Below are positions 24,783-55,785 of a stretch of DNA of 64,000 nt, piece by piece. Position numbers and translations under genes: made by a program. Numbering within the stretch: position 1 is the stretch's first letter; each line of letters begins with the position of its first letter. The stretch is from an uncultured Nitrospiraceae bacterium (GTDB lineage: Bacteria; Nitrospirota; Thermodesulfovibrionia; Thermodesulfovibrionales; Dissulfurispiraceae). The stretch spans positions 832,001-896,000 of the forward strand of contig CAVSHF010000005.1 of the NCBI GenBank assembly GCA_963727805.1, read 5' to 3'. The notes beneath the pieces were generated by a model. That model was not told the DNA's origin and did no database searches. It worked only from the letters and a program-made list of their open reading frames with translations.

Positions 24783-24830
24783 ATCTTTAGCTCCCCAAGC
24801 ATTTAATGAGTTTTGAATCTTATGTTGCCG

Positions 24831-35458: not shown

Positions 35459-35472
35459 ATACATGGAGACAA

Positions 35473-36348
35473 ATGACGCTCATAGAGGAACAGTTAACCG
35501 ATAAGGAGAAACTCATGGACACATTTGAGCTTTGGTCTTACGATGTCAGTGGTGATTTGGGACAATATGCAGAGCACACTTATATTAAGTGTCCTGATAA
35601 GGGAACGTATTTTGACTGTTGGGGTAACCATCAATCTCCAACTGAAGGAGCGGGTGTCCACCGTTTTTCCTGTGAAGGGATATATGAGGTGGCTGACTGT
35701 TACAGAAAGAATATTGGGGAAATTAAAGATACAGCGGGCATTGGTGTTTATGGCGTAAACGGAGTCTGCCATCAGACCGCAAACCTGTTTCTTTATTCGA
35801 CGGGACGGGCCATAACCATTGCTGACGGGGTAAAGGGCTATTGGCTTAGCAGCCTTGCTTACGGAACATATGGTGATCTGAATCCCTTTGATACGCCCAT
35901 CAAACCACTTTTTGTGGAAGCCTGGAAACTTACTGTATACAACCCTTGCTATCAAACATACGCCGATGGGAAAGGCAAAGGTAATGAGCTTTTCCAAAGT
36001 CTCGCGAAATTACACAAAACAATTGTGCAGGACAGGATCAAGATATCGCATCCTGAACTGATCCACCATGAAGCATCCATCCTTGCAAAACAGGTATTGC
36101 CTGAACTGAACACCGACCTTTTTGAAGATATTCATATCGATTTTCTGAGAGAAAAGCGTGCCATTATAACAACCAGGTTGAAGGGAGTTGATTTAGGCAA
36201 CAAGATTAACGAAGGCGCAGCTCAGTTTCAGATATCCCTGGCTCAAAGAATAGGAGCTGAGGCGTATAAAAAACTGACAGGATTGAATGCGGGGGAAACA
36301 CTGCGGATCATAGACCCAGCAATTGCAGCAAAAGCGGCTAAACAATGA
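35473..36348 (+). CDS. Hypothetical protein, possible permuted papain-like (His...Cys) enzyme
   Basis: AEHTY followed by YGVNGVCHQ, i.e. His before Cys; 14 bp after the upstream gene. Confidence 0.55.
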   Translation: MTLIEEQLTDKEKLMDTFELWSYDVSGDLGQYAEHTYIKCPDKGTYFDCWGNHQSPTEGAGVHRFSCEGIYEVADCYRKNIGEIKDTAGIGVYGVNGVCHQTANLFLYSTGRAITIADGVKGYWLSSLAYGTYGDLNPFDTPIKPLFVEAWKLTVYNPCYQTYADGKGKGNELFQSLAKLHKTIVQDRIKISHPELIHHEASILAKQVLPELNTDLFEDIHIDFLREKRAIITTRLKGVDLGNKINEGAAQFQISLAQRIGAEAYKKLTGLNAGETLRIIDPAIAAKAAKQ

Positions 36349-36500
36349 CAATGGACATAGCCAATTATCCATATGTTTGAATCCTTACAATTATCTGACC
36401 ATTTATAGGTGGTAGTGATGAAAATAAGGCTCGTTAGAATTCTGAATATCTTTGGACGCCCAGACAAAAATCTCAAGGATGAATTGAAGGGAGGAGTGAG

Positions 36501-37535
36501 ATGGACATAGAATTCCATTATTACATGACTCACCTGATTGCATTAAGGGCTGGCTTCAAAAAAGAAGATGCTCTGAAAATAGCCTATGCAAGCCAATATA
36601 CGGATGATAATGATGAATCGCGTAAGATCATGGGAGGGGATACGCCATACTACAATTCAATAAGCCAAACGTCGGATATTCAAAAGCCACAGGAAGAACG
36701 ACTGAGCATATACCCGATATTTCACTTCTGTCCTGGCACAAAAGATGAGATGTTCAAATATTCGCCATTGCGCAAGGATGGCGGTTTTAATCTACTTACA
36801 ACTATTCGGGATAATAGTAATGCGCGGAAGATTTTCGATGATGCTCTCAAGGCTGGCGACGTATATCGCATCGGCATCGGGACACACATGTATGCGGATA
36901 CGTTTTGCCATAGGGACTTTTCAGGGTGGAAGGATGCATTTAACTGGATCAAGCTGAAAGGATTTGCCGGAGGAGTATGGAATGCTGTGGGACCAGCAAT
37001 CGGGCATGCACTTGCGATGCATAATCCGGATATACCATCTCTTGTATGGGAAGACACGCGGCTGACTTCAAAGTACAGCCTTAAAAAAAATAAAGAACAG
37101 ATCCTCATGGCAGCAGGAAACATCTTCGATATTTATTGCGGGCTGACTAAACCGGGAAAAAAGAAATCTGCCAGCAGAGATAAGCTTCTCGGCGATCTTA
37201 GTGACGCCATAGGGAACGAGGCCGAGACCGATTCGACCAAAGATGTTCGTGTTAAAAATTACAGAATTCTTCTCGATCTCGATTATAGGGAATACGATGA
37301 ACAGCAATGGTTTGATAGTGCAGTTGATGAAGTAGTAGATCCTAAAACAGTGGGCACCTCTAATCTTAGAATGCTTATTTGGAAACAAGATTATATGAAA
37401 AGTGACTGGTACTTGTTTCAGGAGGCGGTAAAAGAGCATCATGAAGCGGCGATGTATGTTCTTAAGGATACGTTTGATTTGATGGAAATAGATGAAAAAA
37501 TGCTGGTGGGCAAGTCTACTGGTGATACGGAGTAA
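36501..37535 (+). CDS. DUF6765-like protein (phospholipase C/P1 nuclease-like Zn motifs)
   Basis: FHYY, ASQYTDD, FHF and GIGTHMYADTFCH; GGAGG RBS. Confidence 0.7.
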   Translation: MDIEFHYYMTHLIALRAGFKKEDALKIAYASQYTDDNDESRKIMGGDTPYYNSISQTSDIQKPQEERLSIYPIFHFCPGTKDEMFKYSPLRKDGGFNLLTTIRDNSNARKIFDDALKAGDVYRIGIGTHMYADTFCHRDFSGWKDAFNWIKLKGFAGGVWNAVGPAIGHALAMHNPDIPSLVWEDTRLTSKYSLKKNKEQILMAAGNIFDIYCGLTKPGKKKSASRDKLLGDLSDAIGNEAETDSTKDVRVKNYRILLDLDYREYDEQQWFDSAVDEVVDPKTVGTSNLRMLIWKQDYMKSDWYLFQEAVKEHHEAAMYVLKDTFDLMEIDEKMLVGKSTGDTE

Positions 37536-37588
37536 TTGTATTCCTATTGTCTCTTTTAGGAATTCACAGTAACAGGAGAAAGGAAATT

Positions 37589-39049
37589 ATGCCTCTTGCG
37601 ATTCGTCCATCTCATTTTTATAGCCTTTTAAGTCCATCCGAATGTGCATTGCGGCTATATCTAAATCATCAGGGGATCGAGCCTGAAACGCCAGGAGCAT
37701 TTGAGCAGGTGCTTTTTCGACTGGGACAGAGACATGAGAAGAATCATCTGGCTACCTTTTGTGCTTTTTCAGATCTGACAGGCAAATCAGCAGAAGCAAC
37801 TGTGGAGGAATTAAATAGAAGAGCACCAGTTATATATCAAGGTACCCTCCGAGCCACAGTGCAAATAGATGATAATCTGATCGAGATCGTTGGCATTCCG
37901 GATTTCATGATCTGGGACGAGACGGGCTATGTAATTCGCGATTGCAAAATATCACGGCACATAGATGAAGCACGCCATCCTGAAATACCTCGGCAAATGC
38001 AAACATACGGATGGCTTTTCGAAAAGATAACCGGCAACAGACCTTTAAGGCTTGAGGTGTTAAAAGGCGATGGCATCATAGAAACCTTAGACTATGCCGG
38101 AGAAAGTGTGCCTTTATCGTATCTGCAATCTTTGGCGGAGATCATTTCCCTGAATGAGGAGCCGTATTCACCGGTCGGATGGAGTAAATGCGGTAGCTGT
38201 GGATATAACGAACTATGTTGGACACGCGCTTCTGATCAAAGGGATGTCGCTTTGGTATACGAGCTTGATCAAAACCTCGCCAAGCGTTTGCGCGAACTAG
38301 GTGTTTTGACAATAGAGCAACTCGTTGGTCGATATAATGAGCCAACACTGTCAGAACTCAAGAGGCCTTGGGGGGCCCGAGAACAAAAGGTTGGGAAAAA
38401 AGCAGAAAGGATACTTTTACAGTCAAGAGCAATGATCGCTAAGAAAGAAATTATCCTTAAAAAGCCTGCGATCCCGATATCAAAGAATTATGCCATGTTC
38501 GATCTTGAGGGGCTCCCTCCGCAATTGGATGAACTCGACAAGATTTACCTGTGGGGCGTTCAGGTATTCGGTGAAATGCCGAGTCCCTTCCTTCATTCTC
38601 TTGCAAATATTGGATCGGAAGGCGACAGGCAGGGATGGGAGGATTTCCTGATGATCGCTAAATCGATTTTCTCAACTTATGGAGTTATTCCCTTTGTACA
38701 CTGGGCGCCATATGAGAAAACCAAAATAAAGATTTATATGGAACGATACGGCGATATCGAGGGGCTAGCTGAGAAGGTCCTCTCCAACCTGGTCGATCTA
38801 TTGCCAATTACACGCGAGGCAGTCGTAATCCCCGAACCGAGCTATAGTCTGAAAGTTGTCGAGAAGTACGTCGGATTCAAGCGGACACAAGATGAGTACG
38901 GTGGCGATTGGTCAATCGCCAAATATATTGAAGCGGTGGAAACGGATGATGAAAATAAGAGAAAATCGCTTATCAATGAGATCTTAAAATATAACGAAGA
39001 AGATCTTCAGGCTACTTGGGCAGTGTTTGATTGGTTGAAAACTCTTTAA
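37589..39049 (+). CDS. TM0106-family RecB-like nuclease (PD-(D/E)XK + HhH + RNase H-like)
   Basis: G.RHE, GIPDFM..DCK, CxxC, FDLE, HWAPYE, YSLKVVE and YNEEDL. Confidence 0.85.
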   Translation: MPLAIRPSHFYSLLSPSECALRLYLNHQGIEPETPGAFEQVLFRLGQRHEKNHLATFCAFSDLTGKSAEATVEELNRRAPVIYQGTLRATVQIDDNLIEIVGIPDFMIWDETGYVIRDCKISRHIDEARHPEIPRQMQTYGWLFEKITGNRPLRLEVLKGDGIIETLDYAGESVPLSYLQSLAEIISLNEEPYSPVGWSKCGSCGYNELCWTRASDQRDVALVYELDQNLAKRLRELGVLTIEQLVGRYNEPTLSELKRPWGAREQKVGKKAERILLQSRAMIAKKEIILKKPAIPISKNYAMFDLEGLPPQLDELDKIYLWGVQVFGEMPSPFLHSLANIGSEGDRQGWEDFLMIAKSIFSTYGVIPFVHWAPYEKTKIKIYMERYGDIEGLAEKVLSNLVDLLPITREAVVIPEPSYSLKVVEKYVGFKRTQDEYGGDWSIAKYIEAVETDDENKRKSLINEILKYNEEDLQATWAVFDWLKTL

Positions 39050-39123: not shown

Positions 39124-39363
39124 TCATCTCAGTTTTGAAGCATACATTTTTTTAACTACCCTGCTTATGAAGCTATTCAATCCTCTTCCCTCAATAGCTA
39201 ACCGTTTCATTTGCTCAATATTGTTGTTGCCAGCACTGTGGTAGTTGTACAGATAAAGAGACCCATCTTTAAATTGAACTTTTATAAAGTCGACTCCAAT
39301 TTCATAAGCAATAACTCCCGAATCGCCTCCAAGATTCTTGTAACTGTCCATAATTATCTCCAT
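39124..39363 (-). CDS. KTSC-like small protein
   Basis: YKNLGGDSGVIAYEIG.DFIKVQFKDGSLYLY..G.GLNSFI. Confidence 0.7.
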   Translation of the reverse strand: MEIIMDSYKNLGGDSGVIAYEIGVDFIKVQFKDGSLYLYNYHSAGNNNIEQMKRLAIEGRGLNSFISRVVKKMYASKLR

Positions 39364-39695: not shown

Positions 39696-39721
39696 TTATA
39701 ATGTCATATATGACATTATAA
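39696..39721. promoter_or_regulatory. Perfect 26-bp palindrome, probable operator
   Basis: ttataatgtcata|tatgacattataa upstream of the DUF6471-like regulator. Confidence 0.65.
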
Positions 39722-39787
39722 TAATATATATGATATAATTAATTATAATATGGAATATAAATGTTATATTCGACAAAAGGCTTAAAG

Positions 39788-40030
39788 ATGGCAAAGATCG
39801 AGTGGACCGAAATCACCAAGGGACTCATTAAATCACAGTTGGCGCTGAGAAATATTTCTTACCTAGAGTTGTCAAGGAAACTGGACAAGATCGGTGTAAC
39901 GGAAACGCCACAGAGCATAAACAGCAAACTTAATAGGGGTAGTTTTCCCGCAACATTCTTTATTCAATGCTTGAGAGCTATCGGATGTAAGTTAACGATC
40001 AAATGTAAAGGGGATGATCTCTATGAATAG
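39788..40030 (+). CDS. DUF6471-like HTH regulator
   Basis: W..KGLIKSQL..ISY.EL..L..IGV.ET..SINSKLNRGSF.A.FFIQCL.AIG. Confidence 0.75.
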   Translation: MAKIEWTEITKGLIKSQLALRNISYLELSRKLDKIGVTETPQSINSKLNRGSFPATFFIQCLRAIGCKLTIKCKGDDLYE

Positions 40031-40126: not shown

Positions 40127-40738
40127 ATGAAAAAAAGTATGATCGAGCTGACTACAGTACCTTCAAGTAAGAAGAACATCGAAGAATCAGTGTGCGAAAC
40201 ATCTGAGATTCGCTTTTATCGGGCAAATGAGAAACTCTATGGTGCCTTTAGCAATCTCTATCGCAGGAATATTCTTTTTGAGGGGCGGGTGTATCCTTCA
40301 GCTGAGCACGCTTACCAAGCAGGGAAAGCTAGAAAGGAAGCTGTAAGAGAATGGATATTGAGTGCGCCTTCTCCCGCCCTAGTGGCAATGGCGGCTCATG
40401 GACTTTACACTTGGGATATTGTGCCCAATTGGGCTGCTATTAAATTTGAACGTATGCAACAGGTACTGCATGCCAAATTTACTCAACACGATGACCTCTG
40501 TGAATTGCTGCTTTCTACTGGCGATGCGCGACTTGTTGAAGCGGGTACGGTCGATAGTCCTATTAACCGGCTATGGGGCGAAGTAAACGGTAAGGGTCAG
40601 AACATGTTGGGTGTCCTATTAATGAAATTGAGAGTAGCACTACAGAGCGAACTCGCTTTCCAAAAGGACATAACAAAGTGTAGAATTAACAATCTCAGAG
40701 TAATTGGAAGACAGGACACTATTTGTGTAGGGGAATAA
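40127..40738 (+). CDS. NADAR (YbiA-like) family N-glycosidase
   Basis: FSN..YPSAEHAYQA.K, W..K..M..AKFTQH..LLSTG..LVE..WG..GQNMLG..LM..R; AGGAG RBS. Confidence 0.9.
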   Translation: MKKSMIELTTVPSSKKNIEESVCETSEIRFYRANEKLYGAFSNLYRRNILFEGRVYPSAEHAYQAGKARKEAVREWILSAPSPALVAMAAHGLYTWDIVPNWAAIKFERMQQVLHAKFTQHDDLCELLLSTGDARLVEAGTVDSPINRLWGEVNGKGQNMLGVLLMKLRVALQSELAFQKDITKCRINNLRVIGRQDTICVGE

Positions 40739-40758
40739 CATTCTAATTTTTTCTCTAA

Positions 40759-42711
40759 TTGACTAACAAAGTCGTGGGAAAGCCTTATCAATCAGAACTA
40801 AACAAGCTACCCGAGACTTATCGTTGGGCAGTGTCACAAAGTATTGCCCCCCTTGTAAAAGCAATAAAGACATCAGCACATCTTCCTCTGATAGCAGTAG
40901 GGTCTGGTGGCTCGCTGTCTGCTGCCGAAGTTATGGTGTCGTGCCATGAACATTATTTTGGTGGTATTGCTCGGTCGGTCACGCCTTTGGAACTCATATC
41001 AGCGCTCCCTGCAAATGGACATGCATCTGTTTGGTTCTTCACCGCAAGCGGAGGGAATATAGACATTCAAAGAGCTTTCGAGCATACTCTGCTATTAGAG
41101 CCGAAGCAGGTATCTGCAATAGTTGGTCGATCTGGAAGTCCTATGGCGAAGCTTCTTGTTGAACATCAATACGCCGATATCTTTGAATTTGATTTGCCTT
41201 CGGGAAGAGATGGCTTCCTTGCTACAAGTTCCTTACTTGCATTCTCCATTTTGATTTGTCGGGGATACAGCGAAGCCCTGCCCGATAGTGATTTGCCGGC
41301 ATCATTTAGAAGTCTTCTGAAAAAGACGCTGCCTTCGAACTTAACATTAAATCAGATCGAGGACGCCAGCCAATCCCTTTGGCGACGGTCAACATTACAT
41401 GTTCTTTACAGCAATGAGCTCAAGGCGGCTGCAATTGATATCGAGTCGAAATTTATTGAAGCGGGCTTATGCTCAGTGCATTTGGCGGACTTCAGGAATT
41501 TTGCTCATGGCCGTCATCATTGGTTGGCTAAACATGAAGATACAAGTGCTATTCTCGCTTTATCAATACCTTCTGATGCTAACTTAGCAACCCAGACTAT
41601 TAAATTGATACCCAACAACATCCCCCGTCTTCACATTCCAGTACAGACAAGAGGCGCCTCGGCATGGCTTACAGGTTTAATTCTTTCATTGTATTTAACT
41701 GGATATGCCGGCAACGCAAGGAAAATTGATCCGGGACGTCCCGGCGTCCCATCTTTTGGGAGCAAGATATATGGTCTTAATACTATCTCTGGTTTTTTGA
41801 GTTCATTCAGCCGCATCGATGCGGCAATTAGACGAAAGGTAAGCACGCATAAAAGTCTTCTTTCTCCACGTCGAAAGAGGCTTTGGGGAAAAGCTTATCA
41901 TTCTTTTGAGAAACGTCTTTTGAACGCTTATTTTGGCGGCATAGTTATGGATTATGACGGCACCGTTGTTGACAGTCGTAATCGCTATGACCCGCCAACT
42001 GTGGAGATGAGTAAGCAAATAGTGCGATTGCTAAGGGAGGGGATTGTCATAGGTTTTGCTACCGGCAGAGGCAAATCTATTCGTAATGACCTTAGAAGCG
42101 TAATCCCTAAGAAATTCTGGGGACAAGTTTTGGTTGGCTATTATAACGGCGCTGAAATATCACTTCTCACTGATGGTAATGTTCCGGATGGATCGTCACC
42201 TCCTTGCGATGATTTGCAGAAATTACTAAATACCCTAGCTGAAAATATCGAAATAGCCTCCTTGGCAAAAGTGGCACCAAGAAAATTTCAACTAACCATT
42301 GAACCAACGAGTATGGTTCCAGAGACTTTTCTTTGGGAATTAGCACGGAGCGAATTGTGCGCAGCTGAAAATATGTCCGAGAATATCTATCGTTCTAGCC
42401 ATTCAATAGATATCTTGGCACGAGGAGTATCAAAGGTTTCTGTTATTGCGGAAGTTAGCAAGAGAATTGGGCGTAACGTCGACGTGCTAACCATAGGTGA
42501 TCGCGGCAAATGGCCAGGCAACGATTCTACTCTACTAACACACATTTATTCATTAAGTGTCGACGAAGTCTCCTTTTCGAAGGATACCTGTTGGAATGTA
42601 TGCCCTGCCGGTGTGCGGGGGCCGCAGGGAACACTTTATTATCTGAGTAACCTCCTGCCAGTCCCAAGATTGCGTTTCAGTGCCGTTAAGTTTTCTGCAA
42701 TGGGAGAGTAA
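40759..42711 (+). CDS. SIS (sugar isomerase)-like plus HAD hydrolase fusion
   Basis: VGSGGS, TASG.N.D and NFAHGRH (SIS-like); DYDGT, ATGRG, SK..GD.G..GND (HAD); start may be GTG 40774. Confidence 0.8.
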   Translation: MTNKVVGKPYQSELNKLPETYRWAVSQSIAPLVKAIKTSAHLPLIAVGSGGSLSAAEVMVSCHEHYFGGIARSVTPLELISALPANGHASVWFFTASGGNIDIQRAFEHTLLLEPKQVSAIVGRSGSPMAKLLVEHQYADIFEFDLPSGRDGFLATSSLLAFSILICRGYSEALPDSDLPASFRSLLKKTLPSNLTLNQIEDASQSLWRRSTLHVLYSNELKAAAIDIESKFIEAGLCSVHLADFRNFAHGRHHWLAKHEDTSAILALSIPSDANLATQTIKLIPNNIPRLHIPVQTRGASAWLTGLILSLYLTGYAGNARKIDPGRPGVPSFGSKIYGLNTISGFLSSFSRIDAAIRRKVSTHKSLLSPRRKRLWGKAYHSFEKRLLNAYFGGIVMDYDGTVVDSRNRYDPPTVEMSKQIVRLLREGIVIGFATGRGKSIRNDLRSVIPKKFWGQVLVGYYNGAEISLLTDGNVPDGSSPPCDDLQKLLNTLAENIEIASLAKVAPRKFQLTIEPTSMVPETFLWELARSELCAAENMSENIYRSSHSIDILARGVSKVSVIAEVSKRIGRNVDVLTIGDRGKWPGNDSTLLTHIYSLSVDEVSFSKDTCWNVCPAGVRGPQGTLYYLSNLLPVPRLRFSAVKFSAMGE

Positions 42712-42713
42712 AT

Positions 42714-43874
42714 GTGAATCATGCACTCGGACTCCGGGTACTTAGTGAAATAATGGGGTGGGATGATAATCAGGCAAGGACAGAGTTCAGGTGGCTATCC
42801 TTTATGTCTCGATACAAATATGATGGGTATGGAGACTATCTCGCAGGAGCACGTTTTATAGAAAGCCTCGCAACGTGGTTGCAACAATTCAATTTTACAG
42901 ATAGAAGTATTGCTTATGAATACATTAAGAATGATTTGATCTATATTAGTCCTGCTGAAATGCAAAGACTTATTGAAAAGTTGTTTCCTGAAGTTGTTCA
43001 GCGTCATTTAGCAAAGACAGTGGCAACTTATCTTAAAATACCGTCGCACAAGGTATGGGCTAGTAAGGAGACCGTTGAAGAATTTGACTGGCAAAAACGA
43101 AAGACTTTATTCATGAGCTTAAGCGATGGTGCAAGAATTGATATTTTCCGAAGGGTAAATGCTTCGACAATTTCTAATGAGCAGATTGTCGCAGCAACCC
43201 AGATAGATAAAACAAAGTGGGGAAGCTTAATAAAGGACTTAAGAGACGATCTGGATAAACTACGTCCCGGGCAGGGCAGGAATGCCACCGTGTCTCGAAT
43301 TTATCTGATAGATGATTTTACGGCATCAGGAACAACCTTGCTTAGGTATGATGAGAAAGAAGCAAATTATAAAGGCAAACTCGATAGATTTTATAATTCA
43401 ATCGATTTTGCTCAGAACGAATTGAAATCTGATTTTGGAGATATTCTTGATAAAAAATGGGAGCTTATTATCCATCATTATATCGGGACCGAACAGGTAA
43501 CTCATGTCATAAAGAAAAGGTATGAAGAATCACTATCCATAAAGGCAACGTGGAATCCAAGAGTCGACTTCACTTTTGGCATGATTCTCGCCCAAAATAC
43601 AGCATTGGACAAGCAGTCTAATCACCCATTCGTTGAACTATGTAAAAAATATTATGATCCTTCACTCGAAGGCAAGGGCTTGCACGCTGGTGCGAGCGGT
43701 AATCCTGACCTGACTTTTGGCTATGGTCAATGTGCGCTACCTCTCGTTCTCGAACACAATACGCCTAACAATTCACTACCTTTAATGTGGGCTGAGACCA
43801 GAGGGGCAAACGGACGACATGCTATGCGACCACTTTTTCGGCGAAGACAGAGATACAGTGATTTAGCCGAGTGA
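42714..43874 (+). CDS. Phosphoribosyltransferase-like conflict effector (PRTase-CE type)
   Basis: IYLIDDFTASGTT PRPP-binding loop; GYG..L..HNTPNNSLP..W..PLF.R. Confidence 0.78.
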   Translation: MNHALGLRVLSEIMGWDDNQARTEFRWLSFMSRYKYDGYGDYLAGARFIESLATWLQQFNFTDRSIAYEYIKNDLIYISPAEMQRLIEKLFPEVVQRHLAKTVATYLKIPSHKVWASKETVEEFDWQKRKTLFMSLSDGARIDIFRRVNASTISNEQIVAATQIDKTKWGSLIKDLRDDLDKLRPGQGRNATVSRIYLIDDFTASGTTLLRYDEKEANYKGKLDRFYNSIDFAQNELKSDFGDILDKKWELIIHHYIGTEQVTHVIKKRYEESLSIKATWNPRVDFTFGMILAQNTALDKQSNHPFVELCKKYYDPSLEGKGLHAGASGNPDLTFGYGQCALPLVLEHNTPNNSLPLMWAETRGANGRHAMRPLFRRRQRYSDLAE

Positions 43875-43880
43875 CAGAAT

Positions 43881-45821
43881 ATGGCAAATCCATTTGAAAA
43901 GAGGGCTACTGAGTATCTGCGTGATGACGCAGCGTTTCTTTCGGTAATCACACCGGAACCTTTGCACACTTTCTTTGAGCGTCATGCCAAAGCTGGAACT
44001 CTTTACGACAGGCTTTGCATGGTTATTGGAACCCCGGGTAGCGGCAAGACAACCATTGCCACTCTGCTTCAGTTGCGGACAGTTGAGACTTTACTGAATA
44101 GTTCAAACATAGAAGAATATAAAGTTCTATTACATGCATTAACAAGATGTGGCGTTGTAAGAGAAAAGAAAATTGAAATTGTTGGATGTCGGCTACCCCT
44201 TGAGTCAGAATATCGAGAATTCTGGGAACTCCCATACAAGGAAGATATCAAGATTGGATTGGTAAAGTCCTTTATTCAATCGAGAGCAATTATTTCTTGG
44301 ATGAAAAACCTAGAAGCAAACGGACGTTATAAGCTGGATAACATAAATATAGTGTATCGGGATGGGACTGAAGCTGCGTCTGAGGCAGTTGGGGGTGTTA
44401 CCGCCTCTAATGTCTTTAGCAAAGCGAAAATAGTTGAACGGTCAATATACGAAATAGGTGCCGCTCTCATCCCGCCAAGTGAGAGTTCCCTGAAGAATGA
44501 AGTTATAGCTCCATACCATCCTTTTGATATTATCAATTACTTTTTAATCGATGAATCCGCAACAGGGACGCAAAGAAAGCTAAAACCATTAGTGATGCTA
44601 GACGATGCACACACGCTTCATCCAAAACAACTTTTGGAGGTACAAAATTGGTTGGCTAGAAGGGAGATGACAATTGGACGTTGGCTATTGATGCGGCTAG
44701 ATGCGCAAACGCCTAAGGAGATTATTGATAGCTTCGGGACAGATGCTGACGTCGAGGGAGAATCAAGGATCAACAAGAGTCGCGAAATAACGCATATCTG
44801 GCTTCAAAGTGGTGTGGGACGGCGGAGGCAGCGGGAAGATTTCCGAAAAATGGCCAGGAGTATGGCAGATAAGTATTTACGGTTAATGCCCCTCTTTACT
44901 CGCCAAGGGATTTCTCGTTTCTCGGATATCCTGGGTATTAATGTAAAAGAAATATCTGATACTAAGATGAAAGATCTTGAAAAGCAAGTGAGCAAACTTC
45001 AGAAACAAAAGGGGATAAGTAATCCGCGAAGAGGAAGTTTAGAAGGTGATATCGACAGATATTTCGATAATTCTGATACAGCTGATAAGGGACAAGATGT
45101 CCGTTTAGCGATGCTTCATATAATGTTTCATCGCTATGCCAACAGGGTTCCACAAAAGAGCCTGTTTAATATAGGCGAAGAGGATTATGGACCGGACCCA
45201 TCTAAGCCACTAAAGGTAACATCTGCACTTGCCGACGGTGCAAGAATATTCTTACTGCATAAGTATAGTCGACCCTATTATTACGGTATAGATACTTTAT
45301 GCGATGGAAGTTCCGAAAATGCTGAATTGTTTCTGCAATTAGCAGGCAGATTAGTGGAAGCGGCTGAAGCTCGCATCATAAAATCGCCGAATGAGAATGC
45401 AGCACTGGCTCCTCAATATCAGCATCAATTGCTCACTGAACGTGCAAGAGAGATTGTTGACGACTGGTCTTTTCCAGCTTTTAACGAGGTCAAAGCCCTT
45501 TGCGCTCACATGGCGAAGCAGTGTGTAGAAAAATCTCTTGAACCTAATGCTCCTTTAGACGGGGGGGCAATAGCATTTGGAATATTGCAAGATGAGTTTG
45601 ACGAAATTGCGACAAATCATCCCGAGCTGGCAAAAGTCATTAAGTTTGGCGTGGCATATAACGCAATATCGTTAAGACATAGATATTTGGCGAAGAACAA
45701 GGAATGGTGTTTAATCGAACTAACAGGGCCTGTTCAAATTGTATATGGGTTAACTTTGAACAGAGGCGGCTTTTTAGAAAGACGCGTCCCAGATTTATTG
45801 AAGGCACTGGAGAAGAAATAG
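43881..45821 (+). CDS. ORC/CDC6-like (STAND-related) P-loop ATPase
   Basis: N-terminal NPF..RA.E, Walker A GTPGSGKT, Walker B VMLDD, YYYG..S.N. Confidence 0.75.
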   Translation: MANPFEKRATEYLRDDAAFLSVITPEPLHTFFERHAKAGTLYDRLCMVIGTPGSGKTTIATLLQLRTVETLLNSSNIEEYKVLLHALTRCGVVREKKIEIVGCRLPLESEYREFWELPYKEDIKIGLVKSFIQSRAIISWMKNLEANGRYKLDNINIVYRDGTEAASEAVGGVTASNVFSKAKIVERSIYEIGAALIPPSESSLKNEVIAPYHPFDIINYFLIDESATGTQRKLKPLVMLDDAHTLHPKQLLEVQNWLARREMTIGRWLLMRLDAQTPKEIIDSFGTDADVEGESRINKSREITHIWLQSGVGRRRQREDFRKMARSMADKYLRLMPLFTRQGISRFSDILGINVKEISDTKMKDLEKQVSKLQKQKGISNPRRGSLEGDIDRYFDNSDTADKGQDVRLAMLHIMFHRYANRVPQKSLFNIGEEDYGPDPSKPLKVTSALADGARIFLLHKYSRPYYYGIDTLCDGSSENAELFLQLAGRLVEAAEARIIKSPNENAALAPQYQHQLLTERAREIVDDWSFPAFNEVKALCAHMAKQCVEKSLEPNAPLDGGAIAFGILQDEFDEIATNHPELAKVIKFGVAYNAISLRHRYLAKNKEWCLIELTGPVQIVYGLTLNRGGFLERRVPDLLKALEKK

Positions 45822-45823
45822 CC

Positions 45824-46921
45824 ATGGCCATTCCGTCTTGGCATAAGTCTATTGACCATTATGATAAAGATGTTAGCATTTTCTATGTACTTCACTTCTC
45901 GGAAGCACATAGAAAATGCCTGCTTATTGCAGGAGCCGGGTTCGACCCAAGGACAACTGTCCTCGCAAGAGAACTTTCGGCTACGCTAGGAAATCGATTG
46001 GAAGCCCTGTTTATAAGGGAAGAGCGTCCAAACCCAGATACTACACTTGTTGAGCGGGCTGAAAGAAACTTAAGTTCCCTTCAGCAGATGTGCCCAATTA
46101 ATCGGGTTCTCAGCATTGCTGTATTTTCTGATGATAATGCTGTTGTTGGAGGCATTAATGCAGTTTCTAACATAGTGAACGTCGACTTGGCATCCTATAC
46201 AGATATAATTATAGATTTCAGTGCGCTATCGATAGGCATCAGTTTTCCGGTGGTCAAGTATATTTACGATAGCCTTCGGAAGGATGGAACCAATACCAAT
46301 ATTCATTTGGCGGCTGTTTCCAATCCCGAATTGGATTCATTAATATCGTCTGTTCCAAATGATCGAGTAACAGAGGTGCGTGGATTCTCTCGAATTGATA
46401 AACTTTATGGAGAGGTCGAAAAAGCAAAACTTTGGCTTCCTCAATTGTCAGGAGGCAGGCACGAGACTCTAAGAATAATATTTGATGATGTTAAGCCTCA
46501 CGACTGCTGCCCAATTTTACCTTTCCCTTCCGATGACGCAAAGAAAGGCGATAACTTGGCGGCCAACTTTATATCAGAACTGGAAAATGAATGGAATGTT
46601 GATACAAGGAATTTTGTGTATGCTGATGAACGAAATCCGTTAGATATCTACAGAACGATTTTACGGATAGATGAGGAACGCAAGCCAGTTTTTGAAAGTT
46701 TCGGAGGTTCCGTTATAATTCTGTCGCCTCTCGGCAGCAAAATGCTTGCTATGGGAGCACTGATTGCTGCTTTAGAAAAACATTTTCCAGTGGTTTACGT
46801 TGAAGCTTTGGAGTATAATGTGGATTGGCATCGCGTAGATGCTATAACTGGAAATGCCTCAATGTCAGCTCACATTTGGTTATATGGTGAAGCCTATTTA
46901 AGAGATATTCGTAATGCCTAA
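45824..46921 (+). CDS. Hypothetical protein in the operon (alpha/beta, possibly CARF-like)
   Basis: ATG 2 bp after the ATPase stop; GFDPR, IIIDFSALS and LSPLGSK motifs. Confidence 0.7.
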   Translation: MAIPSWHKSIDHYDKDVSIFYVLHFSEAHRKCLLIAGAGFDPRTTVLARELSATLGNRLEALFIREERPNPDTTLVERAERNLSSLQQMCPINRVLSIAVFSDDNAVVGGINAVSNIVNVDLASYTDIIIDFSALSIGISFPVVKYIYDSLRKDGTNTNIHLAAVSNPELDSLISSVPNDRVTEVRGFSRIDKLYGEVEKAKLWLPQLSGGRHETLRIIFDDVKPHDCCPILPFPSDDAKKGDNLAANFISELENEWNVDTRNFVYADERNPLDIYRTILRIDEERKPVFESFGGSVIILSPLGSKMLAMGALIAALEKHFPVVYVEALEYNVDWHRVDAITGNASMSAHIWLYGEAYLRDIRNA

Positions 46922-47990
46922 AGATATGAGAAACATTTCCCATAAAAATAAACCGAGAGTGTTTGGCACAGGGCTCTTTGCTCTGGATGTCGTTCTTAGT
47001 GCAGATCCAGCGGAGCCTATTTATTGTTGGGCCGGCGGCACCTGTGGCAATGTTTTGATAATATTGAGTTATCTGGGCTGGAGAGCATCTCCCATCGCAC
47101 GGCTTAACGGGGATCCCTCATCGATACGTGTAAAAGACGATATGTCTCGATGGGATGTGAGCCTTGCTTTTGCTAAGCAGTCTCCGACTGCTACTACACC
47201 TATTATTGCTCAGCAAAACTATCGTGATAAAGGCGGAGATGCGACCCATAAATTTGCTTTTACCTGTCCGATGTGTGGTGCGTCATTACCTTTTTACAAG
47301 GCAGTTCCAAATATTGCAGCGAAGCGCATTGCTGAGCAAATAGAGAATCCTCACGTATTCTTTTTCGATAGAGTATCGGTTAGTGCGCTAACCTTAGCGA
47401 AAAGGTGTAAAGAACTCGGAGCGGTTATTTTCTTTGAACCATCTGCTAAAGGTGACCCCAAGCAATTCTCGGAGGCGGTACAGTTGGCTCATGTCATTAA
47501 GTACTCGCAAGAACGTTTTAGTTTTTTTGTTGACGAGTATAAATCGGCTGGAGAATTGCCCTTCATAGAGATTCAAACGATGGGACGGGAAGGATTAATA
47601 TTTCGTTCAAGTCTGCCTAATGCGAAATCAGAGGAATGGACAAAGCTACCGGCAACGGCTGTAGAACAGGTCGAAGATACGTGTGGTTGCGGTGACTGGA
47701 CCACTGCTGGCCTTATATCGAAATTGTGTGATGTTGAAGGAGTAGAAGGGCTTAAAACAAAGTCTTTGAAAGATATTATGCGTGCTTTGAATTTTGGACA
47801 GGCTCTAGCTTCTTGGAATTGCAGGTTTGTGGGAGCTCGGGGCGGAATGTATCGAGTTGACAGGAGAAGATTTGAAAGAGAAATATCGGAAATTACCAAT
47901 GAGAGTGTCCAAATGACAAGAACGCATACGAAGAAATTATACGATGAGACACCAATGAGAATGATTTGTCCATCCTGCTGCGGAACCTAA
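46914..47990 (+). CDS. PfkB/ribokinase-family carbohydrate kinase with CxxC motifs
   Basis: GGTCGN and DTCGCGDWTTAG; CPMC and CPSC. Confidence 0.85.
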   Translation: MPKDMRNISHKNKPRVFGTGLFALDVVLSADPAEPIYCWAGGTCGNVLIILSYLGWRASPIARLNGDPSSIRVKDDMSRWDVSLAFAKQSPTATTPIIAQQNYRDKGGDATHKFAFTCPMCGASLPFYKAVPNIAAKRIAEQIENPHVFFFDRVSVSALTLAKRCKELGAVIFFEPSAKGDPKQFSEAVQLAHVIKYSQERFSFFVDEYKSAGELPFIEIQTMGREGLIFRSSLPNAKSEEWTKLPATAVEQVEDTCGCGDWTTAGLISKLCDVEGVEGLKTKSLKDIMRALNFGQALASWNCRFVGARGGMYRVDRRRFEREISEITNESVQMTRTHTKKLYDETPMRMICPSCCGT

Positions 47991-48021: not shown

Positions 48022-49077
48022 TCAATACCCAATTTCAGCAAGATCGCGAATCGGATTTATTTGTCCTTCCAGATAGTTTCTGAGGACATCCTCTTTTTGT
48101 TCAGTATAGTCTTTCAATATTGAATAAGATGTGATATCTACTGCCTTATAGAACATATCATAGTTACCACTAAGACTGGTTGTCCAAGGGGCGGGATAGG
48201 ACATTTTCGTGTAGATTTCCGAAGATAAAATTGATGCCAGCCATTTACACTGAAAATTATCTTTACCTTTATTCAAGATGTAATCAATATTAAGATCCTC
48301 AGAAAGCTTTCGAGACTTCTTCTTATCGGGCTTTGTCAGGATGACATTGAGAGATTCTATTCCTAGCTCTGCTAATTTCCTGCAAAGGGAAACTAAGCCT
48401 TCATTGAAACCAAAATGAGGATATCCTACGAAATGTTTACCATAAGAGGGACTTTTTTGTTTGACATCGCAAGCATACAATTTATCCTTGTGCTCAATAA
48501 AAAAGTCCACATCATATCTGAATCGGAATAGTTCAGCAAATAATCTGCTTAAAGCGATCTCTTTAATAAGATTAATCTTGGTACGGTTATACTGGATTAA
48601 GACCCTAACAAGCTTCTCCCATCTTTTATTATCTTCCTTTTCTTCCACTGGGGCTTTTTCTTTCCACCATCCACCAGTCAGTTTCTTTTTATTCTTAAGC
48701 CAACGATTATTGATTTCGGGAATATCAGATTGCGATATGGTCAAACAATCAAAGGACTTTTCTGCTTCATTGAAAGAAACTAAAAACACCCTAACTTGTC
48801 TGTTCAGAAAATGCACAAATAGTTTTATATCTAAATCTGTTACTAAGTTATCAGGATTTGATAGCTTATATGCCTCCCCGACACATTGATCCGGAAACCA
48901 CCAATTAGATGAATAAGACAAAGAAGAATCCGATAAAATATCCTTTGCGAATGCCCTTTCAATCAATATTCCTTCTATTCTCTCTACTTTGTTATGTCTG
49001 AATGTGCCAATCAATTTGTTCACATCGTTAAAGTCAATGGATTCAAGAAGCACGTCTTGATTTAACCACTTTGTCAT
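48022..49077 (-). CDS. Putative PD-(D/E)XK-fold nuclease
   Basis: YDVDFF..ACDVKQK..FGFN; similar to the C-terminal part of 51845-53341. Confidence 0.55.
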   Translation of the reverse strand: MTKWLNQDVLLESIDFNDVNKLIGTFRHNKVERIEGILIERAFAKDILSDSSLSYSSNWWFPDQCVGEAYKLSNPDNLVTDLDIKLFVHFLNRQVRVFLVSFNEAEKSFDCLTISQSDIPEINNRWLKNKKKLTGGWWKEKAPVEEKEDNKRWEKLVRVLIQYNRTKINLIKEIALSRLFAELFRFRYDVDFFIEHKDKLYACDVKQKSPSYGKHFVGYPHFGFNEGLVSLCRKLAELGIESLNVILTKPDKKKSRKLSEDLNIDYILNKGKDNFQCKWLASILSSEIYTKMSYPAPWTTSLSGNYDMFYKAVDITSYSILKDYTEQKEDVLRNYLEGQINPIRDLAEIGY

Positions 49078-49452: not shown

Positions 49453-50613
49453 ATGCCGCAAATTCACATTAAGTTGGACAAGGCGACACACGAAAGATTG
49501 AGCAAAAAAGCTCGAGAGTTCAACTTTAGCATCCAGGAATTCGCCGAAAGGGCCCTGTCGCTGGCGGTTGACAACCCGCTTGAAACCATTTTCTCCTCCA
49601 AAAATAATGAAGACAGTAATTCAGAGACTTTGTTTACATTTATCGACCTGTTTGCCGGGATTGGAGGGATACGCTTGGCACTGGAACAGAATAAAGGGAA
49701 ATGTATTTTTTCTTCAGAATGGGACAGGTGGTCACAAAAGACATACTTTGACAACTTCGGAGAAATGCCTGCAGGAGACATTAATGAAGTTCGGTTGAAG
49801 GAGATTCCCGATCATGACATCCTATCAGCTGGATTTCCTTGCCAGCCCTTCTCTATAGCTGGAGTCTCCAAGAAAAAAAGTCTCGGGAAAGAACACGGCT
49901 TCAAGGATAAAACTCAAGGGACACTTTTTTTCAAAGTCGCCGAAATTATCGAGGCCAAGCGACCCAAGGCGTTCCTGCTCGAAAATGTTAAACACCTGAG
50001 AAATCACGACAGGGGGCAGACCTTCGCAATCATCGAGGGTACTCTCCGGGAACTCGGATATACTATTGTCCATGATATAGTCAACGCTGCTCACTATGTC
50101 CCGCAGCACAGGGAAAGGCTTTTTATTGTAGGCTTCAATAGGGATATTTACGGCGAAAAAGTGGACTTTAATTTCCCAGAAATACCCAACGCAAACCCAC
50201 ACCTTGGCTCTATTCTTGAAAAGAGGGTAGATGCCAAATATACGCTGTCGGATAAGCTGTGGAAATATCTTCAGGACTACGCTGAAAAACACCGCCGGAA
50301 AGGAAACGGCTTTGGTTATGGGCTGTTCGGCTCGAAAGATGTGGCACGCACGCTAAGTGCCAGATACCATAAGGACGGGTCAGAAATTCTTATAAAGAAC
50401 GGGAATTTAAATCCACGCAGGCTCACACCGCATGAATGTGCCAGACTCATGGGATTCCCTCACAACTTCAAGATAATGGTATCCGATACGCAGGCATACC
50501 GGCAGTTCGGAAATTCCGTAGTTGTTCCGGTCGTTGCTGCCGTTGCCTCGGAGCTGGTCAAAGCCGCTGGGCTGGGTGCGGCGTCAACCCGACAGTCCGT
50601 ACGGAATGGCTGA
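49453..50613 (+). CDS. dcm: C5-cytosine DNA methyltransferase (Dcm/M.EcoRII-like) with N-terminal RHH-like extension
   Basis: FIDLFAGIGG, GFPCQPFS, ENV, PQHRER, TLSARYHKDGSEILI and QFGNSV. Confidence 0.92.
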   Translation: MPQIHIKLDKATHERLSKKAREFNFSIQEFAERALSLAVDNPLETIFSSKNNEDSNSETLFTFIDLFAGIGGIRLALEQNKGKCIFSSEWDRWSQKTYFDNFGEMPAGDINEVRLKEIPDHDILSAGFPCQPFSIAGVSKKKSLGKEHGFKDKTQGTLFFKVAEIIEAKRPKAFLLENVKHLRNHDRGQTFAIIEGTLRELGYTIVHDIVNAAHYVPQHRERLFIVGFNRDIYGEKVDFNFPEIPNANPHLGSILEKRVDAKYTLSDKLWKYLQDYAEKHRRKGNGFGYGLFGSKDVARTLSARYHKDGSEILIKNGNLNPRRLTPHECARLMGFPHNFKIMVSDTQAYRQFGNSVVVPVVAAVASELVKAAGLGAASTRQSVRNG

Positions 50614-51067
50614 TATTGTCGACACTGCTACCAGAAGCAGGATGATGGCTGGGATCAGAAGCAAGGACACCGGTCCCGAACTTGAAATAAGGAAAAAACT
50701 TTTCGCAAAGAGATTTCGCTACCGCCTTCATGACAGGAGGCTGCCCGGGAAACCGGACATAGTACTCCCCAGATACGGGGCGGTTATCTTCTTCCACGGA
50801 TGTTTCTGGCATGCCCACGATTGTCATCTATTCAGATTGCCTTCTTCCCGCGTTGCTTTCTGGGAGAAGAAACTGCTTCGGAATGCAGAAAAGGACAGGG
50901 AAAGCCGTGACGAACTGAAAGAACTTGGCTGGCGTATCATGACCATATGGGAATGTTCTTTCAGGGGTCCCGGGAAAAAAAGGGATAAAGAGATTGATGC
51001 AATTATCGCAACGGCTGTACAATGGCTGCAATCGGGGAAGAACGATGATATTGAAGTCAGGGGATAA
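50606..51067 (+). CDS. vsr: Very short patch repair endonuclease
   Basis: MADIVD..RSRMM..I.SKDT.PE, LPGKPD, FHGCFWHAHDC and WEC; overlaps the MTase stop. Confidence 0.93.
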   Translation: MADIVDTATRSRMMAGIRSKDTGPELEIRKKLFAKRFRYRLHDRRLPGKPDIVLPRYGAVIFFHGCFWHAHDCHLFRLPSSRVAFWEKKLLRNAEKDRESRDELKELGWRIMTIWECSFRGPGKKRDKEIDAIIATAVQWLQSGKNDDIEVRG

Positions 51068-51073
51068 ACAGAG

Positions 51074-51829
51074 ATGACTATAAGTTTGTTCGATGTACAC
51101 AGAAAACTGATGCCCTCGCCGACGGAAGTAATAAACGAAGCTATAGAAAGAATACTCGTGCCACCCGATAATACTCCCGTCTATATCAAAAGCAATTTCA
51201 GTAAGCTTGTTGAGGAAATACAGGTTGATGCTTATGAAATATACTTGAAAGCTGAAAATGCTATTGGCCAAGAAACCTTTAAGAAGGCCTTGTCCGACAG
51301 ATGTCCGGAAGATGCAAGCAGGGATGAAGTCATCAAGATTGTCTGTTCGATGTTTCATGAATTCGACAGGTTCTATCTGTCGCTGACGCAGTCCCGCAGA
51401 CCGCGGGCTGGCAGTGCTTTTGAAATAGTACTGAAGACCCTGTTTAAACACATGAAATATCCGTTCGATGAACAACAGGTGATAAACGGCAAGCCTGATT
51501 TTCTTATGCCGAGCAAGAAGCATTACGACAAAAACCCAATGGACTGCATCATATTCACCGCAAAAAGGAGTCTGAGGGAGAGATGGCGTCAAATTGTTAC
51601 CGAGGGCACAAGAGGGCTGGGATTTTATCTTGCCACAATCGATGAGGCTGTTAGCCCCCCTCAGCTGGAGGAAATGTTAAACCACAGGATTTATGTCATT
51701 GTTCCTATCAATATCAAGCAAAAGGTAAAGGTATATGCTGACGCACAGAATGTCATAACCTTTGAGGAGTTTTTCAGACACCATCTGGACCCTGCGGTAG
51801 ACCGATGGAGAGATAAAGGAGTCATATAG
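51074..51829 (+). CDS. Type II restriction endonuclease, EcoRII C-terminal-domain family
   Basis: SRR.RAG.AFE, KPDFLMP and AKRSLRERWRQ. Confidence 0.85.
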   Translation: MTISLFDVHRKLMPSPTEVINEAIERILVPPDNTPVYIKSNFSKLVEEIQVDAYEIYLKAENAIGQETFKKALSDRCPEDASRDEVIKIVCSMFHEFDRFYLSLTQSRRPRAGSAFEIVLKTLFKHMKYPFDEQQVINGKPDFLMPSKKHYDKNPMDCIIFTAKRSLRERWRQIVTEGTRGLGFYLATIDEAVSPPQLEEMLNHRIYVIVPINIKQKVKVYADAQNVITFEEFFRHHLDPAVDRWRDKGVI

Positions 51830-51844: not shown

Positions 51845-53341
51845 TCACCTGAGAATGTTCTTTCTCCTTTTCGCCACTTCGTCCATAATACTTTTATCCC
51901 CATCAATCTTGCCAAAAAGTTTTTCAGCATGATAAGTATTCCCAGTGCCGATTATCATAAATTCTTCCGGGTTAAGCGGTTCTTGTACTCTTCGATAAGA
52001 GTCTCGACCTGAATCCACACCAGATGTTTCAAAACAGTCATCGCTATCTTTTTTACTTCTTCTAATTGTCTCCGTTACAATCTTGCTGGTAATCCATAAC
52101 AAATTATCTGCTAGTTTCTTATCTTGGATTAGAGGGATAGGGGAGAGCTTGTCCCCCTGCCTCGGATCCACCAATATTACATGCAAAAGGGGTTTGTTAT
52201 CCCTGGAAAGCCATTCAATCAGCTTAACAAAAGGGTTAATATCCAGTCCAAACCTATCGTCTGCAGTAGGATATTTTCTTTTAAATTCGACCGGAACAAT
52301 CTCACCCTCGACCTTAATGAAACAATCCAAGTCAGAAGGCTGCCTTGCGAACAAAGGGAATAGCCAGCAATTCATGAAAATTCTACTTATTGCAAGTGAC
52401 TCGATCTCTTCCGGAGGTAGTTTGTCAATCGCTTCAAGCACTGCATTGTCAATTCCAGAATTATCCGGATTCTTAGGTTCAACAGCGTTGCCTAATCCAA
52501 GCTTTTCTTTGACAAAAACATCGATTGGCAAAGCGCGCGATTTGTTCTCGCCGTATAAGATTGCATTATACATCTCTTTGTCAAAGTTGACCCGTGTAAC
52601 GATTGAATTTCGACTCTTAAGATATTTGGCTATTTCATCATCAAAATCATTCCATCTATTGTGATGATGTTCGAGTCTGAACCAATATTTCGGAACCTCG
52701 CCCATCGGTGTTTCCTGAGGGTAGATAACTTCAACCAATAATCTGTTAAGTCTGCGGATTTCTGTCTTCTCACCCGATGTAAGTTCTCGCGATGATTCTC
52801 TCCTCCAACTTTCTGTCTTTTTTACGAGGTCATATATCTGGCATGTTAATAGCAGTTGTTGATTCTTATTTATTATCTTCTCGTATAGACTCGGCAAACT
52901 GATTACTTCATTGAGCCAACTCACGGTATTAATATCAGCGTTTATTTCGCCAATTGCATAGCCTGCATCAGAGATTTTCTGGCACAGTATCCTGATATCT
53001 ATTCTTGGATTTTTAAATTCACGAGAAGAAAATTCGATGACCTTCTTAAATTGGAAAGCCCATCCTTTTGTCATTAATTGTGAAGTTCGACGGCAATATT
53101 CTTCGAGCTGTGATATGAATTTGTACTCAAATATAAAAGCCGGTACGCGTTTCATCCCTTCTGCCATCAGCAACTCTCCGAAGTGCTCTCGATTGGATAT
53201 ATCAAACCGCTTGTTATAGTGAGCACAGCAAATGCTTCGTTGAGTGGCTCTTTTCATTTGTGAAGAAACTTTATTGGAATTTATCAAGTCCTCACACTGA
53301 TCACTCTTGTGTTCTTTGCGAAACTTATCCAGCTTATTCAT
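51845..53341 (-). CDS. Putative PD-(D/E)XK-fold nuclease
   Basis: PSDLDCF..VPVEFKRKYP..FGLD; GGAGG RBS. Confidence 0.55.
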   Translation of the reverse strand: MNKLDKFRKEHKSDQCEDLINSNKVSSQMKRATQRSICCAHYNKRFDISNREHFGELLMAEGMKRVPAFIFEYKFISQLEEYCRRTSQLMTKGWAFQFKKVIEFSSREFKNPRIDIRILCQKISDAGYAIGEINADINTVSWLNEVISLPSLYEKIINKNQQLLLTCQIYDLVKKTESWRRESSRELTSGEKTEIRRLNRLLVEVIYPQETPMGEVPKYWFRLEHHHNRWNDFDDEIAKYLKSRNSIVTRVNFDKEMYNAILYGENKSRALPIDVFVKEKLGLGNAVEPKNPDNSGIDNAVLEAIDKLPPEEIESLAISRIFMNCWLFPLFARQPSDLDCFIKVEGEIVPVEFKRKYPTADDRFGLDINPFVKLIEWLSRDNKPLLHVILVDPRQGDKLSPIPLIQDKKLADNLLWITSKIVTETIRRSKKDSDDCFETSGVDSGRDSYRRVQEPLNPEEFMIIGTGNTYHAEKLFGKIDGDKSIMDEVAKRRKNILR

Positions 53342-54294: not shown

Positions 54295-54405
54295 TCATCA
54301 TCACTATTGTAGCTTCACAGCATGTTTACAAAATCGTACTCCTTTGTACGCATCATTGCAAGCGAAAAATATGTCCAGTCCCATTTTGCCTTGCATGGCA
54401 TTAAT

Positions 54406-54972: not shown

Positions 54973-55058
54973 GGTGACTTCCTCCGGTAATGAGACTAGA
55001 TATTTCTCTTTACCACAGAACCCGTGGCTTCAGGGTTTTACTAATCTTTTTTCAGAAG

Positions 55059-55779: not shown

Positions 55780-55785
55780 AAAAGT

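Follow-up and report, generated by a model that had tools for sequence, protein, structure and literature searches.

The DNA considered here is a stretch of 64,000 nucleotides (the window) from contig CAVSHF010000005.1 of an uncultured Nitrospiraceae bacterium, and the subject is a six-gene operon in it that encodes, in order, a NADAR protein, a fusion of a SIS domain with a HAD phosphatase (SIS-HAD), a phosphoribosyltransferase (PRTase) of the PRTase-CE family, an ORC/CDC6-like ATPase, a CARF6 protein and a PfkB sugar kinase. The main finding is that SIS-HAD, PRTase-CE, ATPase and CARF6, accompanied by PfkB and/or a NADAR of a dedicated clade, form a conserved unit, a mobile and patchily distributed cassette of five to seven genes present in many bacterial groups, and that its SIS-HAD gene occupies the slot of a DNA methylase gene in related cassettes. 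The core families have already been catalogued, and the cassette is a variant of a predicted kind, with an unusual sugar-enzyme module. It is probable that CARF6 senses an alarm ligand, that the ATPase switches, and that PRTase-CE drains phosphoribosyl pyrophosphate (PRPP) and infection is aborted. The fuller reading, in which SIS-HAD writes the ligand and PfkB or NADAR erases it, is put forward tentatively, with slightly more doubt than confidence.

The unit was delimited from an alignment of CARF6: of 215 relatives in the genome collection the best 80 were used, and these 80 genome loci, with the window, four plasmids and two viral contigs, make up a set of 87 loci. ATPase, CARF6 and PfkB occur in all 87, PRTase in 83, SIS-HAD in 77 and NADAR in six, most of the missing genes being accounted for by contig ends or frameshifted assemblies. 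An earlier reading of this DNA (the sequence-only reading) had proposed a six-gene system; that there is a conserved unit is borne out, the four-gene core being retained across loci and plasmids, but the number six is not, NADAR and PfkB each being dispensable in parts of the family. Separate queries of 72,556 plasmids with CARF6, SIS-HAD and PRTase each return the same 19 records, with one stray record (partial) for SIS-HAD and one for PRTase, and the three genes are therefore hardly seen apart. Within the unit the run PRTase-ATPase-CARF6 is constant in order, and SIS-HAD, PfkB and NADAR change position around it. Hosts are found among the Alpha-, Beta- and Gammaproteobacteria, Desulfobacterota, Acidobacteriota, Planctomycetota, Bacteroidota and Actinomycetota. 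The cassette is present in none of 40 sampled relatives of the window's host, and a divergent copy resides in another member of the host's family (locus L225). Clustering of the neighbours of the 87 loci yielded no further recurring partner beside the unit, no conserved transporter or catabolic gene and no recurring methylase, methylase matches adjoining three of 39 loci. CARF6 is absent from the annotated phages searched, and only two IMG/VR contigs match it. A blastn search of 5,426 E. coli genomes gave no DNA match to the cassette, which may be why screens in E. coli have not reported it.

What sets this family apart becomes evident from its relatives. Already catalogued cassettes of PRTase-CE (PF24390), ORC/CDC6-like (PF24389) and CARF6, mostly methylase-linked, agree with the window's operon in these three families and in their order. 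In a sample of 401 genomes from the host's phylum, 22 are PF24389-positive, and the loci of the 16 that were examined are kin rather than independent; in 13 of these 16 a DNA methylase gene stands beside an effector-ATPase-CARF6 row. Five of the 13 have PRTase-CE as effector, and in others it is HD-CE, a calcineurin-like phosphoesterase, TIR or a protein kinase. Of four similar loci in the kinase group, Pfam confirms the kinase in one, and one locus of the 13 has no identified effector. The remaining three comprise two of SIS-HAD type, one of them broken, and one of neither type. Nine of the 13 rows open with the methylase, in the slot of SIS-HAD in the window's operon; in locus L217, for example, methylase-PRTase-ATPase-CARF6-dUTPase matches SIS-HAD-PRTase-ATPase-CARF6-PfkB slot for slot. 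These loci are the reason for regarding CARF6 and the ATPase as the constant pair, with PRTase in the effector slot and SIS-HAD in the methylase slot, and because the sugar-phosphate enzymes occupy the methylase's place they probably control the alarm molecule. In contrast to the methylase-linked cassettes, the window's unit has no methylase of its own, carries SIS-HAD with PfkB and/or NADAR, and belongs to a distinct clade of PRTase, ATPase and CARF6. In three relatives the ORC/CDC6-like ATPase has a large N-terminal extension, ParA-like by eye (L220:5468-8332), TIR (L223:6079-8352) or protein kinase (L227:5001-7478), and CARF6 and methylase genes adjoin it.

In the scheme that we favour, CARF6 would bind a small alarm molecule during phage infection and the ATPase would then switch on PRTase-CE, whose draining of PRPP would stall nucleotide synthesis, and the infection would abort. 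SIS-HAD would make the active ligand, a sugar-amine compound (N-ribosyl or ketosamine) in dephosphorylated form, and would thus stand in for the DNA methylase of sister cassettes. In uninfected cells PfkB would re-phosphorylate the ligand, or NADAR would hydrolyse its N-glycosidic bond; either would remove it and set the threshold. A sugar-amine compound could be the one kind of substrate common to SIS-HAD, PfkB and NADAR. A more specific version, in which the second messenger would be an Amadori-type sugar-amine, written by a GlmS/FrlB-like isomerase-phosphatase in place of DNA methylation, read by the tandem CARF and erased by a ketosamine kinase or N-glycosidase, with one signal module able to serve several CARF-ATPase-PRTase units, is speculative and on balance unlikely in all its detail. 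Were the favoured scheme true, CARF sensing would no longer be confined to cyclic oligoadenylates but would take in a product of sugar-phosphate enzymes, and immune signals would gain a new class. The family also offers a clean test of the CARF6-ATPase class as a whole, since one and the same switch is coupled in some cassettes to a methylase and here to sugar enzymes, with natural variants (PfkB-only, NADAR-only, both, or two trios per module) as built-in controls.

The sensor is the fifth gene of the operon. It had been left without a name in the sequence-only reading, which suspected a ligand sensor, and it proves to encode PADLOC CARF6 (PDLC01916, residues 9-359), for which that function is predicted. 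VIA-align matches its AlphaFold model (pLDDT 92) best with Can1 (6sce; Z 14.8, root-mean-square deviation 3.1, 232 residues aligned), and the top 22 rows are all CARF or CRISPR-ancillary-type chains. As modelled, the protein is two CARF domains in tandem with no space left for an effector domain. Can1, one of the CARF effectors of type III CRISPR, has two CARF domains per chain as CARF6 does, but CARF6 has no nuclease domain. The host genome (100% complete) has no Cmr2_N (Cas10) or SMODS match over cut-off and a Csm1 match far below it, in a search confined to these synthase families, and the CARF ligand therefore probably comes from another source. A release factor was the sole match of the CARF6 profile in the PDB (E 0.048) and was taken as a chance match.

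PRTase-CE is the predicted effector of the cassette. D200, D201 and G206 of its PRPP loop are invariant in 43 of 43 homologues, PADLOC matches it to PRTase_III-A (6e-19), and it contains the retron-type G-x14-P-N-N motif as G336...P351-N-N; the final proline of the longer form, G-x14-P-N-N-x-P, is shifted by one in the window's protein and is not conserved. No NCBIfam model matches it, and Pfam, PADLOC and NCBIfam detect no DNA-binding domain and no C-terminal winged helix. The PRPP loop and the G-x14-P-N-N part of the motif are shared with the PRTase of the type III-A retron Eco11, which is toxic when activated and lowers PRPP by about 50% (PMC12746101); by analogy, that enzyme may serve as a model for PRPP depletion by PRTase-CE. 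The cassette differs from that retron in having no reverse transcriptase among its genes or recurring neighbours and in placing its PRTase under the control of an ATPase and CARF6. The ATPase, predicted to be the switch, retains Walker A and the Walker B residues D241/D242 in 40 of 40 homologues; it is among the most divergent proteins of the core and its PF24389 score is marginal (Table 1). An apparent PRTase-ATPase fusion at locus L048 was rejected as an out-of-frame artefact.

SIS-HAD consists of a predicted double-SIS domain (residues about 1-345) joined to a Cof-type HAD-IIB phosphatase, whose D398 and D400 are kept in 48 of 48 homologues. Pfam calls no SIS domain on the window's protein and calls it in four of the 48 homologues; the assignment is backed by ESM Atlas features and by PDB and NCBIfam profile matches. 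The SIS-half profile aligns with the double-SIS structure 2aml over 4-246 (E 2.4e-4) with matching Glu and His-Gly columns, and reaches fructose-amino-acid-6-phosphate deglycase weakly (E 0.073); NagB-II glucosamine-6-phosphate deaminase is matched by seven of 28 SIS members (best 1.9e-6). On these weak matches, the SIS half resembles sugar-phosphate isomerases, sugar-amine deaminases and deglycases. Double-SIS enzymes of the NagB-II/deglycase type make or break a sugar-nitrogen bond. Across all clades SIS, HAD, PRTase and ATPase keep their catalytic motifs. Single-sequence PDB searches with SIS-HAD, PRTase and PfkB returned no matches. Stand-alone SIS proteins of ~360 residues from Actinomycetota and Myxococcota (ESM Atlas clusters) closely resemble the SIS half.

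PfkB and NADAR are the putative erasers. PfkB keeps G258, G260 and D261 in 43 of 43 homologues and carries conserved Cys-x2-Cys pairs; among solved structures it stands closest to ketohexokinase and fructokinases, and less close to ribokinase and adenosine kinase. PfkB and NADAR are each dispensable in parts of the family, but every one of the 81 complete loci selected by CARF6 (71 from genomes, 10 from plasmids or viruses) has at least one of them, as expected if either can clear the ligand: the complete four-gene genome loci are divided into 69 with PfkB only and two with both (nine of the 80 being incomplete), and the plasmid and viral loci into six with PfkB only, two with both and two with NADAR only. 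For all 19 plasmids the figures are 10 with PfkB only, seven with both and two with NADAR only, so that PfkB is on 17. The window's copy carries both. One locus, L226, was considered as lacking both and was rejected, NADAR being present.

The NADAR itself is by homology an N-glycosidase of a cassette-dedicated clade, an accessory that alternates with PfkB. All nine plasmid NADARs of at least 66% identity lie on cassette-bearing plasmids, no more than about 13 kb from the CARF6 gene. When metagenome loci were picked by NADAR alone (the best 80 of 507), a core gene was near it in 73; in six of the remaining seven a contig end interrupts the locus, leaving one true exception. (That exception, L136:9596-10543, is alone among the NADARs of the clade in having no cassette gene within long flanks, and its neighbours look phage-like.) The usual layout of these loci is NADAR-SIS-HAD-PRTase-ATPase-CARF6 with no PfkB: 37 complete ones have NADAR only (18 of them with short flanks) and five have both, 38 of the 80 being incomplete. 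In a tree of 115 loci all 38 NADAR-only loci form one clade (support 1.0), which implies a single loss of PfkB, and loci with both genes appear in six places. Between clades with cores of 21-33% identity NADAR keeps 73-78%, in a metagenome set chosen for its NADAR similarity; the plasmid set agrees.

This dedication, together with the report that NADARs are ribosyl N-glycosidases (PMC9503650) and the coupling of a PRTase with a NADAR in the validated anti-phage system DS-32 of DefensePredictor (10.1101/2025.01.08.631726), is what would be expected if, in line with the sequence-only reading, the system were of the DarTG or DS-32 kind, with PRTase phosphoribosylating DNA, RNA or protein, NADAR serving as the eraser antitoxin and the sugar enzymes recycling the product. 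NADAR, however, is found in only two of the 80 genome loci picked by CARF6 and on nine of the 19 plasmids, and is thus missing from 78 and 10, respectively; PRTase-CE occurs in five methylase-type cassettes that have no NADAR match, and no DNA-binding domain is matched in the window's PRTase. DS-32 has two genes only, in contrast to the cassette with its optional NADAR, which scores 58 bits on the NCBIfam model DS32_2 against a cut-off of 240; and no operon gene matches the ART family of DarTG1 in Pfam, PADLOC or NCBIfam. The essential eraser has accordingly been given up, and we regard a DarTG- or DS-32-like system as improbable.

A more serious alternative keeps the CARF6-ATPase switch and places the sugar enzymes downstream of PRTase. 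PRTase-CE would phosphoribosylate an amine, SIS-HAD would rearrange and dephosphorylate the product to a toxin or detoxify it, PfkB or NADAR would reset the system, and the CARF ligand would come from the infection. From PRTase to isomerase to phosphatase is a natural chemical chain, as TrpD/TrpF, HisG/HisA and the butirosin enzymes BtrL/BtrP illustrate. Two PRTase-ATPase-CARF6 trios with a single SIS-HAD, PfkB and NADAR are present on plasmids of Sinorhizobium meliloti and of Rhizobium tumorigenes (loci L173, NZ_CP088118.1, and L174, NZ_CP117256.1, in which the trios also have one helix-turn-helix (HTH) gene in common). The paired PRTases are 36-37% identical, the ATPases 24% and the CARF6 proteins 27-28%, and two trios so divergent on one sugar module would suit this alternative, as would a NADAR far better conserved than the cores, which is expected for a fixed substrate; divergent CARFs, however, need not bind different ligands. 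The five methylase-type cassettes that use PRTase-CE have no SIS-HAD, PfkB or NADAR match, and SIS-HAD occupies the methylase slot, both of which count against this alternative; the slot also weakens the proposal of the sequence-only reading that the sugar enzymes merely supply or recycle the sugar phosphate. We hold this alternative to be doubtful and keep it as the main rival. (In L174 a patatin gene lies between the trios, and in four rhizobial loci a patatin-like gene follows PfkB.)

Several points count against the favoured scheme, in which SIS-HAD writes the ligand. A gene's slot is by itself no proof of its role. PRTase is replaced in none of the complete SIS-HAD-family loci examined, which fits an SIS-HAD that acts on the product of PRTase. 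The SIS subfamily matches are weak and below curated cut-offs. The structural check that the sequence-only reading had called for on CARF6 gave a divided answer, VIA-align finding Can1, but Foldseek finding no CARF match and only transporter and USP matches of low TM. The alternation of PfkB and NADAR goes back to one loss and is a hint rather than a statistical result, in a metagenome set that was selected by NADAR similarity. The Dcm-Vsr-EcoRII-like cluster near the operon may supply a methylase in trans; the methylase is not part of the operon unit, Dcm belonging to its own restriction-modification (RM) cluster. Finally, Metis is a precedent for both sides. In Metis a metabolite triggers the effector and a HAD enzyme clears the basal signal, and versions with a methylase of their own are predicted (10.1101/2025.11.05.686725); a metabolite danger signal, a nucleotide-draining effector and a threshold-setting HAD phosphatase are analogous to what is proposed here, but the HAD enzyme of Metis is a cleaner, not a writer. 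The analogy goes no further: no operon gene has a domain of the m6dAMP-sensing effectors MisA (PUA and metallophosphatase) or MisC, the HAD match is at the level of the superfamily, and the main text of the Metis paper makes no mention of CARF, PRTase or ORC.

The defence setting that the sequence-only reading had supposed is upheld by the flanks. From 39 related loci 149 of 164 picked open reading frames (ORFs) were scanned; 20 of the 149, in 15 of the 39 loci, have PADLOC matches at E<=1e-30, as against two of 122 ORFs taken as a control from the genome of the host (Fisher p 2.5e-4), or 17 of 149 (p 1.4e-3) when three promiscuous matches are dropped, the control being one genome, the ORFs mechanically called and the loci not independent. 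Flanks of the cassette are enriched in defence genes. This and the patchy distribution weigh against a non-immune role in ligand-controlled metabolite repair or deglycation, with a FrlB/FrlD-like kinase and deglycase and a YbiA-like NADAR. Such a role could be read from the absence of a nuclease or pore in the cassette, from an SIS half that is deglycase- or deaminase-like and from a PfkB that is ketose-kinase-like. FrlD and FrlB are the pair of a deglycation pathway, and the window's PfkB is likewise near the ketose kinases; the SIS half of the fusion resembles, by profile and with the Glu and His columns probably matched, the double-SIS enzymes GlmS, NagB-II and FrlB, but it is fused to HAD, it scores weakly, and it is situated in a conflict cassette. 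No conserved transporter or catabolic gene adjoins, and CARF6, the ORC-like ATPase and PRTase-CE are repeatedly accompanied by methylases and conflict effectors. A repair pathway is therefore very improbable. By the features tested, the cassette is distinct from retrons, DS-32, DarTG, Metis and the accessories of CRISPR/CBASS. The literature searched contains no description or test of the gene set, in keeping with the earlier statement that no experimental characterization was known; the likely source papers of CARF6 and PRTase-CE (Makarova 2020, Burroughs and Aravind 2020, Nicastro 2023), outside that search, may already draw the layout. In their available text, PMC13712802, PMC12839542 and 10.64898/2026.10.19.760177 name the core families in other systems only.

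In the window, the six ORFs are all on the + strand at the coordinates first assigned to them, and tightly coupled, successive genes being 20, 2, 6 and 2 bp apart and the final pair overlapping by 8 bp. The operon is single-copy in the host genome. All five Pfam family calls (NADAR, HAD, PRTase-CE, ORC-CDC6-like and PfkB) exceed their cut-offs, in agreement with the families first named for PRTase and ATPase, and the motifs quoted for the enzymes are intact, being invariant or nearly so in homologues. Homologues of SIS-HAD begin at a position corresponding to a GTG at 40774, which may be its real start.

Upstream, a seventh gene encodes a small HTH-like DUF6471 protein. It is found in one of the 87 loci, and so is not a conserved part of the family; genes annotated as HTH regulators adjoin NADAR on three plasmids. 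The DUF6471 protein is likely to be a local autoregulator, and a perfect 26-bp palindrome, one of four of at least 26 bp in the 3.9-Mb host genome, is likely to be an operator to which a protein would bind. The promoter-like site that it overlaps ranks best of 29 found (21.7 expected in shuffles) and is a consensus match only. Since both accessory enzymes and a likely operator are present, the window's copy is a good one for cloning. A 79-residue ORF at 39124-39363 (-), divergent from the operon, has no Pfam match at E 0.001.

Table 1. Features of the operon and its surroundings (window positions unless a locus is named).
Feature	Position	Strand	Remarks
NADAR	40127..40738	+	Pfam PF08719 3e-25
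SIS-HAD fusion	40759..42711	+	HAD half Pfam PF08282 7e-8
PRTase-CE	42714..43874	+	Pfam PF24390 2e-23, 83.9 bits vs cut-off 27
ORC/CDC6-like AAA+ ATPase	43881..45821	+	Pfam PF24389 8e-8, 31.9 bits vs gathering cut-off 27
CARF6 (365 residues)	45824..46921	+	PADLOC CARF6 2.5e-100
PfkB kinase	46914..47990	+	Pfam PF00294 5e-10
DUF6471 small HTH-like protein, upstream seventh gene	39788..40030 (alternative start 39761)	+	Pfam PF20075 1e-25
Perfect 26-bp palindrome	39696..39721		overlaps -35 box of promoter-like site
Sigma-70-like promoter, extended -10	39710..39739	+	11/12 consensus matches
C5 cytosine methylase (Dcm), Vsr, EcoRII-C-like endonuclease; type II RM cluster	49453-51829	+	1.5 kb from operon
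Two unannotated ORFs flanking RM cluster	48022-49077, 51845-53341	-	no Pfam, PADLOC or NCBIfam match
Metallophosphoesterase, 291-residue unnamed protein, DUF6765, TM0106 nuclease, in a row	34325-39049	+	upstream of operon
Transglycosylase-domain gene overlapping weak-LysM gene, then AbiV/HEPN gene	29670-32008	+	
Two Rhs-repeat ORFs (524 and 1401 residues)	22377-29036	-	
PDC-S42 candidate, TPR protein, nucleoside 2-deoxyribosyltransferase, LexA-like S24 peptidase; further right HD/YfbR-like nucleotidase	53377-56379 and 60013-61209		
TniQ and TniB genes	61695-63826	-	
TnsA-like ORF (by eye)	L185:1781-2425	-	just beyond window's right end

The neighbours of the operon in the window include an AbiV/HEPN gene, a TM0106 nuclease, the Dcm-Vsr-EcoRII-like cluster and a PDC-S42 match. 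The row of genes that ends with the TM0106 nuclease is possibly a separate uncharacterised unit. In both unannotated ORFs that flank the RM cluster a D-x(9-12)-D/E-x-K-like pattern can be made out by eye, and they are possible PD-(D/E)XK nucleases. All of the window to the right of about 22 kb may be cargo of a Tn7-like element. An ORF of 566 residues at 32337-34037 has no Pfam match and, by eye, may be TnsE-like.

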